Assembly: GCA_963728565.1 (NCBI GenBank)
Contig: CAVSLC010000023.1
Coordinates: 128,001 to 192,000, forward strand
Origin: an uncultured delta proteobacterium
Lineage (GTDB): Bacteria; Desulfobacterota; Binatia; UBA9968
Direction: 5' to 3'
Length of the DNA stretch: 64,000 nucleotides
Under the pieces are notes generated by a model, which was not told where the DNA came from, ran no database searches, and saw nothing but the letters and a program-made list of their open reading frames with translations. Each line of letters begins with the position of its first letter. Within the stretch, counting starts at the first letter, position 1. Both the position numbers and the translations under genes were made by a program. Below, piece after piece: positions 2,205 through 7,483 of the stretch.

Positions 2205-4439
2205 ATGGGCAAAACCTTCAAAACCGAACAGCAGATCAGCGACACGCCCACGTTGGATGAAACTAAACGGCGAAAGCGTGAAGGACTGGCGATTCTCATC
2301 ACTTCACTGGTGGTGCTGGCGTTCGCATTCTTCGAGGTGCAGCTTCCCGATGTTTCCTCGGAATATTCTCTCAGCAATAACATAGTTTTCTTTCTCTTAA
2401 TCAACATCAACATCATTCTTCTGATTCTCCTGGTTTTTCTGGTCGTCAGAAACCTGGTGAAGCTGGTATTCGAACGCAAACGGCGGATCCTCGGCTCGCG
2501 ACTTAGGGTTCGCCTGGTGATTGCATTTGTCGGCCTATCGCTGATTCCGACACTGTTGCTGTTCGTCATTGCCGGGGGATTCGTCACCCGCTCCTTTGAA
2601 AGGTGGTTCGATATACAGGTCGAGACCGCGCTTCAGGGATCTTTGGAAATCGGCCAGACCTATTATCAAAACTCGGCAAACAACGCGCTTTTCTATGCAC
2701 GGCAGCTGAGCCGGCGCGTCACTGAACAAGAGCTGTTCGAGATCGGCCGGCGGAGCGATCTTAAAGAATTTATCCAGATCAAGCAGCGTGAGTACAATCT
2801 CGGGACTGTGGAATTATTTTCACCAGATCACCTGCCGGTAGTAGTGGCTTTCAATGACCAGGTACCCACTGGAGTTAGCATCAAGGCTGAAGCCGATTTC
2901 CTTAACCGCGCGCTGCGCGGCCTGGAAGTCACTCGAACTCAGGCTTTTGGCGAGGGCGACGTTATTCGCGGCGGTGTTCCGATCTATGACAGCGGCAAGC
3001 GGATTCAGGGAGTCGTCGTAGTCGATTATTACGTGCCGAAGAGCATCACCAAACGCGCGCTTGAAATCTCCCGGTCCTATGAGCAGTACAAACACCTTGG
3101 TTTTCTGAAGAATCCGGTGAAAAACAGTTACATTCTGACGCTGCTATTAATTACCCTGGTGATTATCTTCGCCGCGACTTGGTTCGGCCTTTATCTTGCC
3201 AAAGGAATCACGATCCCGATTCAGCAGGTGGCAGCGGGGACTCACGAAGTCGCTCATGGCAACTGGGATTATCAAATTGAGGCGGCCGGCGACGACGAGT
3301 TAGGAACCTTGGTTGAGTCTTTCAACCAGATGACCCGAGACTTAAAGAAGAGCAACCTGGAATTGTTGCGCCGCGGCAAGTTCGTTGAAACACTTCTCGC
3401 TAATATTACCGCAGGAGTCATTGCTGTCGATCCGAATGGCAAGATCACTTCTTGGAACAAGGCGGCCGAACAAATGTTAGGTGTGGATGGTTCTGATGCT
3501 CTCGGAAAATCCTACAGGGAAGCGTTTGAAACCGAGCCGCTAATGGTCATGCGCGACTTGATCAACAACCTCAAAGATCGCGAAAGCAGCGAGACTGAAT
3601 TGCAGATACAGCTACCGGACCATCTCCTTACCGTATTCGCGACCGCCGCTACCCTCAGAGATGATGCTAATGACAGCTTAGGTATCATGATTTTTCTCGA
3701 AGACATTACCCAGATTCAAAAAGTACAGAGGATGGAAGCGTGGCGCGAAGTGGCGCGGCGAATCGCGCACGAAATCAAGAATCCGCTCACGCCGATACAG
3801 CTCTCGGCCGAGAGACTGCGCAAACGCTATGCTAAGCTGTTGCAAGGGGATGGCGCGGTACTGGACAAATGCACGACGACGATCATCCAGCAGGTGGTCG
3901 AGCTCAAGAATCTGGTGAATGAGTTTTCGCAATTCGCAAGACTACCTACGGCTCAGCCGGTGCCCAACGACCTAAACGTGATTGTTCAGGACGCGCTATT
4001 CCTGTTTAAGGAAGGACATAACCATATCGATTTTGAATTCCGGCAGGGAGAGTTGCCGGCGCTGGAGCTCGATCAGGAGCAAATCAAACGGGTAATGATC
4101 AACTTATTAGACAACGCCGTGGCCGCCGTTGGCGGCCACGGCCATGTGCAGATATCGACTGCTTATGATTGCACTCGGAACACGGTCTACCTTGAAGTTG
4201 CCGACGATGGTTGCGGCATGGCGGCGGAAGCTCGAGTTAGAATATTCGAGCCTGGATTTTCCACAAAAAAACAGGGTACCGGTCTGGGGCTCACCATCGT
4301 CAATCAAATTGTCGAAGATCATCGAGGTTATATTCGGGTGCGGAACAACGAACCACGCGGCACAAGGTTCGTGATAGAGTTTCCGGTGCGGGAGCAGGGC
4401 GCGCTACGCGAGTTTAAAAGGAAGGCTGCGCAGCTATGA
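2205..4439 (+). CDS. NtrY-like membrane sensor histidine kinase (TMs, periplasmic domain, HAMP, PAS, HisKA, HATPase)
   Basis: H-box AWREVARRIAHEIKNPLTPIQL (NtrY type), NLLDNA, DDGCG, GTGLGL; N-terminal TMs and GSRLRVRL as in NtrY. Confidence 0.92.
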   Translation: MGKTFKTEQQISDTPTLDETKRRKREGLAILITSLVVLAFAFFEVQLPDVSSEYSLSNNIVFFLLININIILLILLVFLVVRNLVKLVFERKRRILGSRLRVRLVIAFVGLSLIPTLLLFVIAGGFVTRSFERWFDIQVETALQGSLEIGQTYYQNSANNALFYARQLSRRVTEQELFEIGRRSDLKEFIQIKQREYNLGTVELFSPDHLPVVVAFNDQVPTGVSIKAEADFLNRALRGLEVTRTQAFGEGDVIRGGVPIYDSGKRIQGVVVVDYYVPKSITKRALEISRSYEQYKHLGFLKNPVKNSYILTLLLITLVIIFAATWFGLYLAKGITIPIQQVAAGTHEVAHGNWDYQIEAAGDDELGTLVESFNQMTRDLKKSNLELLRRGKFVETLLANITAGVIAVDPNGKITSWNKAAEQMLGVDGSDALGKSYREAFETEPLMVMRDLINNLKDRESSETELQIQLPDHLLTVFATAATLRDDANDSLGIMIFLEDITQIQKVQRMEAWREVARRIAHEIKNPLTPIQLSAERLRKRYAKLLQGDGAVLDKCTTTIIQQVVELKNLVNEFSQFARLPTAQPVPNDLNVIVQDALFLFKEGHNHIDFEFRQGELPALELDQEQIKRVMINLLDNAVAAVGGHGHVQISTAYDCTRNTVYLEVADDGCGMAAEARVRIFEPGFSTKKQGTGLGLTIVNQIVEDHRGYIRVRNNEPRGTRFVIEFPVREQGALREFKRKAAQL

Positions 4440-5754
4440 AAAATGGAGGGGCGGTGAAGGAGTTATCATCTCAGAAAACCATCCTTGTTGTCGATGACGA
4501 GGACAAGGTTCGGGAATCGGTTAAAGAAGTGCTGACGGACGAGGGATATCGGGTACTCGATACCGCTGATGCCACTTGCGTCCTGGAAATGATCGAAGCG
4601 GAGCAACCTGGGCTTGTGCTGCTCGACATCTGGATGCCGAAAATCGATGGTATTGGCTTGCTCAAAGAAATCAAGAGCAAGAACCTTCAACCAATGTAGT
4701 GATGATCTCCGGGCACGGAAATATCCACACGGCGGTGACCGCAACTAAATTTGGCGCTTTCGATTTTATCGAAAAGCCGGTCTCGCTCGACGGTCTGCTT
4801 CATACCGTGCAACGCGCCCTGGGCGAGCTCCCTGTACCTCAGAGCCTCTCCGAAATCGGCCAGCGCCATGGCGCCGAGGACGCAGACTCAGTGAGTACAG
4901 CTCCGCGGATAGTCACATCCGCCGAACCGATCCGACAAAAGACCTTGAGAAAAAGCGTGGTGAGTTCAGGTCAAGGATTGCATTCAGGTATTAAAACAGG
5001 ATTGATTCTGCATCCGCTCCCGCCAAATAGCGGCATCTTATTCGAGGGTATCTCAGGTGATGTCAGCGTACCTGCGCATTTAGATTATGTCGGATCAACG
5101 GGATTCGCGACATCATTGAGCCATCGCGGTTTTACGGTTGCGACCGTAGAGCATTTTTTGGCGGTCCTCCATAGTTACGGAATTACGAACTTGCTGGTGA
5201 AAGTTCAAGGCGAGGTTCCGATCTTGGATGGATCGGCGGCGGAGTTTTGCGAACTCATCGAGGAAGCTGGGCTGCACGAGCAAGACGAAAGCTGGTCAAG
5301 AATCGTCATCGATCGTCCTTATCGCATCGGTGACGACGGAGGAGAATGGATTAGTATTGAACCAGCGGAGACGTTTTCGGTCCACTACGTTCTGAAGTAT
5401 CCGAAACCGGTCGGCGTGCAGGAATACATATTCACACATCAAAGTCCGACTTCGTTCAAAGAAGAAATTGCGCCGGCAAGGACTTTCGGTTTTCTGCGCG
5501 ATATGGAGAAAATGCAAAAGCTCGGCTTGATCAACGGAGGCAAGCTTAGTAATTGTATCTTGATCGATGATGAGAAGATCGTAAACACCGACTTGCGCTT
5601 TCCGGAGGAATTGGCGCGTCATAAAATACTTGACATTATCGGGGATTTTTATCTGCTGGGAAGACCCATCCGCGGCAGAATCACCGCTCACATGACCGGC
5701 CATTCCGATAACATTGCATTACTTAAAGCTGTTCGCACCGGACTGGGGTTATAG
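4436..5754 (+). CDS. lpxC: Receiver (REC) domain fused to UDP-3-O-acyl-GlcNAc deacetylase LpxC; one-base frameshift near 4680
   Basis: ORF 4436-4699 gives ILVVDDE...LLDIWMP. ORF 4576-5754 continues VVMISGHG...FDFIEKP...ALG, a linker, then QKTL..GQGLHSG, TVEHFLA, EIAPARTFGF, HKILDIIGD, GHSDN. Adding one A at AGC AA(A) GAA CCT joins them into ~439 aa. Confidence 0.88.
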
Positions 5755-5793: not shown

Positions 5794-6243
5794 ATGGATT
5801 CATCTTCGCCTTATTCCAGATTGTTCACGATCAACGAAGCGAACGCCCTTTTGCCTATAGTGCGTCCGACCATCGAACGCATTCTGGAGATCATACGGCG
5901 CCTCCGGGCCAAGAGCGAAATAGTGATTCGCGCGGAGCAGATCGACCCGGAAACGCCCAACCTGATGCGCCGTTTACAGCGCAACGATGAGATCGCCGCC
6001 TTGATCAAGCAGATCAACGACGCTGTCAATGAGATTCAACAACATGGCTGCGTGTGCAAAGGCGTAGAACAAGGATTGCTCGATTTTCCCTGTTTATTGG
6101 GAGAAGAGATTGTCTTTCTTTGTTGGCAATACGGTGAACATGAGATTGCCTACTGGCACAGAATTGAGGACGGTTTTGCCGGCAGGCGCCCATTGTTGGA
6201 CTCGACTGTCAGCGGATCGAGCGGCGGCGGGCCGCTTCACTAA
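5794..6243 (+). CDS. DUF2203-family protein
   Basis: FTINEANALLP...GLLDFP...LCWQYGE..IAYWH..EDGFAGRRPL. Confidence 0.85.
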   Translation: MDSSSPYSRLFTINEANALLPIVRPTIERILEIIRRLRAKSEIVIRAEQIDPETPNLMRRLQRNDEIAALIKQINDAVNEIQQHGCVCKGVEQGLLDFPCLLGEEIVFLCWQYGEHEIAYWHRIEDGFAGRRPLLDSTVSGSSGGGPLH

Positions 6244-6336: not shown

Positions 6337-7483
6337 TTGGCCGAGCTGTCACAGCGCATCAAGAATGAAGCGCAAAGGCTCGGCTTTGAACTCGTTGGCA
6401 TCTCGCCAGTGCGGCTGCCGCCGCACGAGGAGTCGTTCGCTGATTGGCTGCGGAAAAAACTTCACGGTCATCTCGATTATATGGAGCGAACCGAGCTTTT
6501 GCGGCGCGATCCAAGGCTGCTTGTCCCCTGGGCAGTGTCAATCATTTCAGTGGGAATGAACTACTACACGCCGTTTAAACGGCCAACCCCGTCAGAACGC
6601 GGGCGCGGCTGGATCTCGCGCTATGCTTGGGGTGATGATTATCATGAGATTATCCGGGATAAATTGAAAACCCTGCTCGTATTTCTTCGTGAGATTGGCG
6701 GCGAGACGGTGGAAGGCAGAAGCTTCGTCGATTCCGCCCCGATTCTGGAGCGGGACTTTGCGGGTACTGCCGGCATAGGATGGATCGGGAAAAATACCCA
6801 GCTGATTTCGCCGAAAAAAGGGTCCTGGTTTTTCCTTGGTGAGTTGTTTACCAGTCTGCCCCTTGCTTATGATCAGGCCATTCGCGACCGCTGCGGTCAA
6901 TGTGACCTGTGCCTAAAAGCCTGCCCTACCGGCGCCTTCATCGGACCCTATCTGTTGGATGCGCGTCGCTGCATCTCCTACCTTACGATCGAGCTCAAGG
7001 GTTTTATTCCACGTCATCTGAGACCCCTTATCGGTAATCACATTTTCGGCTGCGACATCTGCCAGGAAGTCTGTCCTTATAATGTTAAAGCGAATTCCAC
7101 CGATGAACCGACTTACTTGCCGCGCCAAGGTCTTTATGCTCCCGATTTGGTTGCGCTGCTGTCGATCGACCAAGAGGAATTTCGCCGGCGGTTTCGCGGC
7201 AGTCCCATTGTCCGGGCAAAACGACGTGGATTCTTGCGCAATGTAGCCGTGGCGCTTGGCAATAATCGGCGGGCCTGAAGCCGTGCCGGCGCTGACCAAG
7301 GCACTGAATGACGAAGAGCCACTAGTTCGCGGTCATGTCGCATGGGCGCTGGGCCGGATCGGCACATCTGAGGCGCTCGCGACATTGCGGCAGAAATTGG
7401 CTTCAGAAGGTAACTCGGAGGTTAAAAGCGAGATTGAGGAGGCTCTTCGCGAGGCCAGTGAACCTGTCCCTGATCACTTGTAG
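6337..7483 (+). CDS. queG: Epoxyqueuosine reductase QueG with C-terminal HEAT-like repeat; frameshift near 7264
   Basis: ISRYAWGDDYH, GIGWIGKN, CGQCDLCLKACP, GCDICQEVCP, RNVAVALGN; HEAT tail (DEEPLVRGHVAWALG) is in ORF 7256-7483. Confidence 0.92.

Follow-up and report, generated by a model that had tools for sequence, protein, structure and literature searches.

The gene at 4436–5754 on the plus strand of a 64,000-nucleotide stretch of DNA from an uncultured delta proteobacterium (assembly GCA_963728565.1, contig CAVSLC010000023.1, positions 128,001–192,000; Desulfobacterota, Binatia; "the window" below denotes this whole stretch) joins the receiver domain (REC; PF00072) of an NtrX-like response regulator to LpxC (PF03331), the enzyme that commits the Gram-negative cell to lipid A, at which lipid A synthesis is controlled and at which much antibiotic research is aimed. 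It directly follows the gene of an NtrY-type histidine kinase (2205–4439, plus strand, 744 residues, recognized by its Pfam domains). Judged from its sequence, the receiver–LpxC protein is a bona fide LpxC of NtrX-like descent that lies outside the NtrX equivalog, and it is a reduced form of a wider family that includes full NtrX::LpxC fusions. The two genes probably encode a two-component pair whose response regulator has LpxC as its output, such that the kinase would phosphorylate Asp64 of the receiver and thereby change the activity of LpxC. In the window's own copy the reading frame is interrupted within the receiver; it is intact in relatives, and residue numbers are those of one intact orthologue, P0001.

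The receiver–LpxC protein, its kinase and their conservation

A sequence-only reading of the window had described an NtrY-type kinase whose stop codon overlaps the next gene, and analysis of the open reading frame at 2205–4439 bears this out. The N-terminus of the kinase is a membrane region with an extracytoplasmic loop (NtrY_N), which is followed by HAMP, PAS, HisKA (with the H-box AHEIKNPL) and HATPase_c; all five of these NtrY-type Pfam domains exceed their cut-offs, NtrY_N with 36.1 bits against 23.2, and no NtrY model stands among the 25 NCBIfam matches listed. The kinase stop and the start ATG at 4436 of the receiver–LpxC gene share the ATGA at 4436–4439.

The full NtrX-style receiver claimed in the same reading is also present, although it is divided between two frames. 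From the ATG at 4436 the first frame runs for 87 codons, the first two thirds of the receiver, and ends at a TAG at 4697–4699. Its receiver part (4436–4683, plus strand; PF00072, E 4.7e-18) comprises residues 1–82 and two bases of codon 83; within it lie the residues of the acidic pocket, D20, D21 and E22, and, in LLDIWMP, the phospho-acceptor Asp64 (codon 4625–4627). The second part, in the −1 frame (4684–4833, plus strand; PF00072 profile positions 65–110, E 1.1e-7), holds Ser92 (in ISGHG), Phe111, Lys114 (in FIEKP) and helix alpha5, so that the receiver quintet D20/D21, D64, S92 and K114 is complete in the window on the two sides of the frameshift. Of the response-regulator models, the NtrX model NF051870 fits the P0001 receiver best. 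The match, at 132 bits, covers the receiver only, whereas the equivalog, defined at more than 600 bits, spans REC, AAA+ and a Fis-type helix-turn-helix (HTH); the window protein has no AAA+ domain.

A variable linker of about 29 residues (4834–4920, plus strand), with an in-frame GTG at 4891, is predicted to be disordered, the predicted local distance difference test (pLDDT) score being below 50 at residues 134–162 of the intact orthologue. It leads into the UDP-3-O-acyl-GlcNAc deacetylase domain, which with its stop codon occupies 4921–5754 (plus strand). The LpxC match (PF03331, 4936–5733) has an E value of 4.5e-83 and a score of 279 bits against a cut-off of 27, and covers profile positions 1–266 of 268; on P0001 the model TIGR00325 scores 254 bits against a cut-off of 187. 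The zinc and catalytic motifs, which had been read as intact, are so in the window translation: E239/H240, T350, H396/K397/D400/D404 and H423 are all in place, and are the equivalents of E78, H79, T191, H238, K239, D242, D246 and H265 of E. coli LpxC.

These residues are nearly invariant across 54 aligned proteins of the window's short type. In the receiver, D21, S92 and K114 are conserved in all 54, D64 in 53 and D20 in 51 (Glu in the other three); in LpxC, E239, H240, H396, K397, D400, D404 and H423 are found in all 54 and T350 in 53. The linker, including the region of the GTG at 4891, is unconserved in the same alignment.

An AlphaFold2 model of P0001 has a mean pLDDT of 86.5 and a predicted template modelling (pTM) score of 0.84, with residues 134–162 disordered. 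Its LpxC part superposes on the LpxC structures of A. aeolicus (template modelling score 0.95, root-mean-square deviation 1.5–1.6 Å) and P. aeruginosa, and structure comparison of the model returned no solved chain spanning both receiver and LpxC. Given that LpxC makes up 63% of the chain and that the linker is disordered, the pTM of 0.84 exceeds what two freely placed domains would be expected to give; it is a hint only of docking, in that the receiver might be placed confidently against LpxC in the model. Two-chain docking of the receiver (residues 12–133) with LpxC (residues 163–439) gave a score of 0.00 in a run without controls, which counts neither for nor against binding.

That receiver and LpxC belong to a single frame, as the sequence-only reading had proposed, is evident from close relatives. 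Among 40 related genomes from three families of one order, a receiver–LpxC protein was found in all 40, and in 36 of them the second half of the receiver runs to the end of LpxC in one open frame of at least 434 residues; in the remaining four the gene is cut by contig ends (G009, G020, G031) or broken into three frames (G005). The fusion is not due to chance, given that 36 of the 40 genomes share this one uninterrupted frame. Translation of individual loci gave intact REC–linker–LpxC frames in 18 of 19 cases, the other being cut by a contig end. Of 29 loci, 28 have an NtrY-like kinase as the immediate upstream neighbour, and the remaining one ends at a contig edge. These counts take in two unpublished genomes (G012 and G018); without both they become 34/38, 16/17 and 26/27, and the conclusions are unaffected.

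The fusion gene is the only LpxC match in the window's genome (G000), no other lpxC being found in this assembly, which is 80.6% complete; a second LpxC-like match, a partial one, occurs in only one of the 40 relatives (G036). Public records label the close relatives as metagenome-assembled genomes (MAGs) of Deltaproteobacteria, Candidatus Binatia, Syntrophobacter(aceae) or Thermodesulfobacteriota, and name their proteins only "UDP-3-O-acyl-GlcNAc deacetylase"; at least 120 such matches, all of those listed, carry both PF03331 and PF00072.

A wider family of fusions and its descent

To define the family, P0001 was searched with HMMER against 1.84 billion cluster representatives, and the best 150 matches were mapped for domains using its own segments together with Pfam. 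Three types were distinguished. Short forms (412–461 residues) are REC–linker–LpxC, the type found in the window; mid forms (about 490–505 residues; P0125 and P0131) consist of REC, HTH_8 and LpxC; and long forms (650–736 residues; 15 complete representatives) carry REC, a sigma-54-type AAA+ domain, AAA_lid_14, a Fis-type HTH and LpxC. The long forms substantiate the earlier proposal that LpxC stands in place of the AAA+/HTH output of NtrX, since they still have REC–AAA+–HTH–LpxC. Residues 5–444 of the long form P0122 align to residues 5–452 (of 454) of the Brucella NtrX structure 5m7n with an E value of 1.3e-74, and P0122 scores 335 bits with NF051870 over positions 3–450 of 452, under the 600-bit cut-off. 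The Fis-type HTH ahead of LpxC is visible in P0122–P0124, and HTH_8 is detected in P0125 and P0131. In the long forms the AAA+ domain has degenerated: a Walker A-like motif is kept in 13 of 15, and neither GAFTGA nor the Walker B Asp-Glu occurs in any of the 15.

Labels in the wider family are those of Deltaproteobacteria/Thermodesulfobacteriota, Binatia, Nitrospinota and Entotheonellia MAGs; source records name the long and mid forms NtrX or LpxC and assign them to MAGs of Deltaproteobacteria, Nitrospinota and Entotheonellia. Because public records name these proteins only "LpxC" or "NtrX", the architecture is hidden in databases.

Eighty loci were taken from species-representative genomes, of which 75 include upstream sequence and five are cut by contig ends; an NtrY-like kinase stands directly upstream in 69 of the 75 informative loci, 15 intact long forms being among these. 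A further 140 genomes, sampled evenly from the phylum, include 136 in which LpxC was found. It lies in an open frame of at least 417 residues in 30 of the 136, with a low Pfam score as in fused forms, and seven of these 30 match a long form end to end; of the remaining 23, two (G150 and G116) were examined with Pfam, and a receiver was confirmed in both. These two had appeared as kinase–REC–LpxC triple fusions of 1378 (G150) and 1007 (G116) residues, a candidate architecture that was rejected: Pfam finds terminal REC and LpxC only, and the kinase is in another frame.

Descent was analyzed with an unrooted tree of the LpxC domain (107 representatives, quick IQ-TREE run, LG+C20), from which 44 of 151 sequences were left out because in none of them did one LpxC stretch span 255 or more residues of the query segment. 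A branch with a Shimodaira–Hasegawa-like approximate likelihood ratio (SH-aLRT) support of 97 splits 58 stand-alone LpxCs from 49 rows that comprise all 45 fused or N-truncated fused forms and four sequences of stand-alone length (P0161, P0167, P0195 and P0216; 283–292 residues); these four may be true secondary splits or gene-call fragments of the kind that the window's own copy would yield. Within the fused clade long, mid and short forms interleave, the short P0140 grouping with the long P0128 and P0151, and the mid P0131 with the long P0142, with support of 100 each. In an approximately unbiased (AU) test on 45 rows (22 short, 2 mid, 15 long and 6 plain; LG+G4), forcing the AAA-less forms into one clade cost 316.8 log-likelihood units (p-AU 3.9e-9), the AAA-less group being set by architecture but named after the first tree was seen. 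A single clade of AAA-less forms is thus rejected, which points to repeated loss of AAA+ from proteins that retained REC and LpxC. As the tree is unrooted, the direction of change, loss and not gain of AAA+, is argued from the degenerate AAA+ domain and from the alignment to complete NtrX. The simplest history would thus be one fusion of an NtrX-type regulator to LpxC, after which the ATPase decayed and the AAA+/HTH part was lost repeatedly, REC and LpxC staying joined throughout.

The window's reading frame and surrounding genes

The frameshift in the window's copy consists of one base, a G in most relatives, missing between 4683 and 4684, where three aligned relatives read AAG AAG CCT and the window reads AAGAA-CCT. 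A one-base frameshift in the receiver, ascribed to assembly, had been noted in the sequence-only reading, and comparison with other DNA agrees with that attribution. All five metagenome contigs that bridge the site, which come from four soil and root metagenome runs of four studies, have one extra base there (G in four, C in one). When the window was compared by blastn with the matching contigs of two relatives (G001, 25 kb aligned; G004, 28 kb aligned), most indels were seen to cluster in intergenic regions. Two single-base indels stand alone within genes, and neither relative shares them with the window: the deletion after 4683 and an extra C at 7267. The extra C, which is not present in three relatives, splits a queG-like gene into frames at 6337–7278 (313 residues) and 7256–7483 (75 residues, with HEAT-like repeats). 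With two private one-base lesions in genes that are otherwise well preserved, including the sole lpxC of the genome, a consensus or assembly error is the likelier cause of the deletion. No public sequencing run with the exact window sequence was found, the best share of sampled words being 0.54. Programmed −1 frameshifting was also considered and was ruled out, as the relatives simply have the extra base.

If instead the frameshift were real in this strain, the locus would give two products, an 87-residue stub of the receiver and a separate LpxC translated from an internal start such as the GTG at 4891, and would be a natural de-fusion or a pseudogene. The stop at 4697–4699 is indeed present in the assembly, the in-frame GTG has a GAGGA nine bases upstream (4876–4880), and the four LpxC representatives of stand-alone length nest inside the fused clade. 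However, the base is present in the three aligned relatives, in the G001 and G004 contigs and in all five bridging contigs; the second private lesion, an insertion in queG only 2.6 kb away, fits consensus errors; and the gene is the only LpxC of its genome, with a receiver stub (residues 1–82) whose protein sequence is 100% identical to that of G001 and G004 and which thus shows no decay. A real frameshift is accordingly regarded as quite improbable. The suggestion that the GTG at 4891 is a separate lpxC start also finds no support in relatives, which read through a linker that is unconserved around it, and this start was rejected.

Copies with broken frames are found elsewhere. The receiver–LpxC gene lies in three frames in another assembly of the same genus (locus L091; G005:C24:114892–116067), and broken long forms occur at loci L101, L104 and L105. 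Frameshifted copies recur in highly contiguous assemblies, so that gene callers often give a truncated "LpxC" there.

The surrounding genes are all on the plus strand. Upstream of the kinase lie ruvA (237–830), ruvB (839–1912) and, between ruvB and the kinase, a DUF2905 gene for a small membrane protein of 70 residues (1958–2170; PF11146, E 1e-24), to which tblastn finds matches at the same upstream place in most loci of the order. Downstream of the fusion gene are a DUF2203 gene (5794–6243; PF09969, E 3.2e-36) and the queG-like gene (from 6337). DUF2203 is found 3' of the fusion gene in 22 of 29 related loci and in none of the six loci of family f3; in the other two families of the order its position behind the fusion gene is conserved. 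The DUF2203 or the DUF2905 product could serve as an accessory part of the receiver–LpxC system.

Putative control of LpxC and comparison with known systems

The sequences show the architecture and its conservation, the gene order, the intact residues and descent from an NtrX::LpxC fusion; phosphotransfer to Asp64 and an effect of it on catalysis, in whichever direction, are inferred. The membrane-bound NtrY-type kinase would sense an envelope or redox cue and phosphorylate Asp64 of the receiver, which the flexible linker would tether to the cell's only LpxC. LpxC activity could then follow the phosphorylation state: the receiver might dock on the enzyme or be released from it, as in CheB, or it might drive dimerisation. 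The flux into lipid A would thus be set post-translationally. For the more specific proposal that phosphorylation by an envelope-sensing NtrY kinase directly switches the catalysis of the sole LpxC, confidence is tentative.

Several observations weigh against these proposals. All genomes with the fusion are uncultured MAGs, and the window's own receiver–LpxC gene is interrupted by the TAG at 4697–4699. A simple on/off switch would be risky for a cell with a single LpxC. The linker varies in length from about 14 to 58 residues among relatives, which argues against a single rigid interdomain geometry. At six receiver–LpxC loci (L078–L082 and L088) no NtrY-like kinase was found within the approximately 2.3–4 kb fetched upstream; these genes encode proteins of 474–482 residues in "uncultured bacterium" MAGs (e.g., L080:3920–5356), and at L080, the one locus inspected, a divergent nusA lies upstream and a DUF6178 gene close by. 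Such kinase-less loci may hold orphan regulators whose kinase is encoded elsewhere. Finally, the short form P0140 (454 residues) has Asn at the acceptor position (LLNIWLP). In the tree this protein is surrounded by long forms, and it may be a variant that works without phosphorylation.

Two other roles for the receiver were considered. It might set the amount of LpxC and not its activity, by exposing or hiding a degron or by recruiting FtsH, Lon or ClpXP, in replacement of the FtsH/LapB/YejM route of E. coli. The protein ends directly after the LpxC fold, without a C-terminal tail like the E. coli FtsH degron, and a search for the LapB zinc-ribbon (PF18073) in the window's genome gave only RadA-like matches; LpxC is, moreover, under proteolysis in E. 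coli and possibly subject to Lon in some alphaproteobacteria, according to a review (PMC12444477). On the other hand, the conserved neighbours at related loci include neither a protease nor an adaptor gene. The LapB search itself says little: 150 of the 186–276 candidates per genome were scored, the control was positive in Gram-positive bacteria, and in the window's genome and four relatives the search gave, besides the match in the window's genome, one further match, in G037. The match in the window's genome (L112, G000:C4:45000–48500, open reading frame 2224–3501) was ruled out as LapB, since the gene is RadA-like (a KaiC-type ATPase with a ChlI/Lon-like domain). Control of stability in place of activity is thus considered unlikely. 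The fusion might also exist without any control of catalysis, serving to fix co-expression or stoichiometry, or allowing occupancy of LpxC by its substrate or product to modulate the receiver and, in long forms, the HTH, with feedback on transcription as in PutA-type enzyme-regulators. This would suit the long forms, which keep a Fis-type HTH ahead of LpxC and of which P0122 aligns to full NtrX, as well as the six loci without a nearby kinase. It is at odds with the short forms, which have no DNA-binding part and yet keep the phosphorylation residues (54/54 or 53/54) and the adjacent kinase, and with the repeated loss of HTH and AAA+ during which REC and LpxC were retained together. Because REC and LpxC were retained through these losses, LpxC itself points to being the output, and a fusion that leaves catalysis uncontrolled is judged a doubtful explanation.

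A link between NtrYX and LpxC is also seen where the two are not fused. Where genomes of the phylum sample have a stand-alone lpxC, the coordinates place the best NtrX-like regulator 2–6 kb downstream on the same strand in at least 24 of them. Two such clusters were annotated (L119, G042:C3:170500–176800, and L121, G122:C23:5600–12300) and have the order lpxC, DUF4390, NtrY-type kinase and REC–AAA+–HTH_8 regulator, the unfused regulators having Walker A, GAFTGA or GSFTGA, and Walker B all intact. The presence of DUF4390 beside ntrYX may resemble the arrangement of the Bordetella plrSR locus. These clusters agree with work on Desulfovibrio vulgaris, where lpxC is the single target of the sigma-54 regulator DVU2934, which binds only upstream of lpxC, and where lpxC of Syntrophobacter is said to adjoin an operon orthologous to that of D. 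vulgaris (PMC3333781). Two further sources state that in Rhodobacter sphaeroides without NtrYX lpxC mRNA is up 8.8-fold and lipopolysaccharide (LPS) is increased, with no NtrX site at lpxC (PMC7240162), and that NtrYX inhibits lpxC transcription in Rhodobacter and Caulobacter (2025 review, PMC12444477). Together, the unfused clusters and these published effects indicate that the NtrYX–LpxC link is older and wider than the fusion.

The fusion is independent evidence, from genomes, for an association of NtrY/NtrX systems with LpxC. In several phyla the receiver–LpxC unit has stayed with its kinase, and the parts that make NtrX a transcription factor have decayed and repeatedly been lost. In model alphaproteobacteria the link is seen only as an indirect transcriptional effect. 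Should the proposed mechanism be true, the fusion family would serve as a "Rosetta stone": LPS homeostasis would be an old and primary task of NtrYX, which would explain the indirect alphaproteobacterial link to lpxC. No description of a receiver–LpxC or NtrX–LpxC fusion was found in a full-text literature search, with most subscription journals outside its coverage, and the words "fusion" and "receiver" are absent from the 2025 review (PMC12444477).

Among characterized proteins the closest functional analogies are CheB (REC–methylesterase), PleD (REC–GGDEF) and RpfG (REC–HD-GYP), in which an N-terminal receiver is linked to a catalytic domain, as here. CheB-type regulators provide the precedent for phosphorylation that relieves or imposes inhibition of an enzyme. 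The output domains of these three proteins are, however, not homologous to LpxC, and LpxC is an essential biosynthetic and not a signalling enzyme. Known controls of LpxC are proteolysis through FtsH/LapB/YejM in E. coli, activation by MurA in P. aeruginosa and, possibly, Lon in some alphaproteobacteria. These use partner proteins or proteases, none of them with a covalently attached receiver or Asp phosphorylation, so that direct phospho-control, if true, would be a new mode beside proteolysis, a protein activator and transcription. The one catalogued LpxC fusion encountered is the bifunctional LpxC–FabZ protein (NF009667), which matches the LpxC part at 205 bits, under the cut-off of 465; in it the C-terminus of LpxC is joined to a second lipid-synthesis enzyme, and there is no signalling domain.

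The systems nearest in composition are the D. vulgaris DVU2931–DVU2934 genes and the lpxC–DUF4390–ntrY–ntrX clusters, which share phylum, kinase type and target gene with the fusion but in which the regulator is a protein of its own, an intact sigma-54 activator that retains GAFTGA and Walker B and acts on transcription, and lpxC comes first in order. NtrY/NtrX of Brucella abortus (5m7n), Rhodobacter sphaeroides and Caulobacter crescentus has the same kinase architecture, and the long relatives of the window protein align to the whole of NtrX and lack GAFTGA, a motif that NtrX too is not known to have. In NtrY/NtrX the output is transcription, whereas here it would be an enzyme; the window form lacks AAA+ and HTH, and the scores of 132 and 335 bits for the short and long forms compare with a cut-off of 600. 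The receiver–LpxC protein is thus, as far as sequence comparison can tell, functionally a response regulator with an enzyme output and by descent an NtrX derivative, and it suggests that these uncultured soil bacteria may directly phospho-regulate the synthesis of their outer-membrane lipid.

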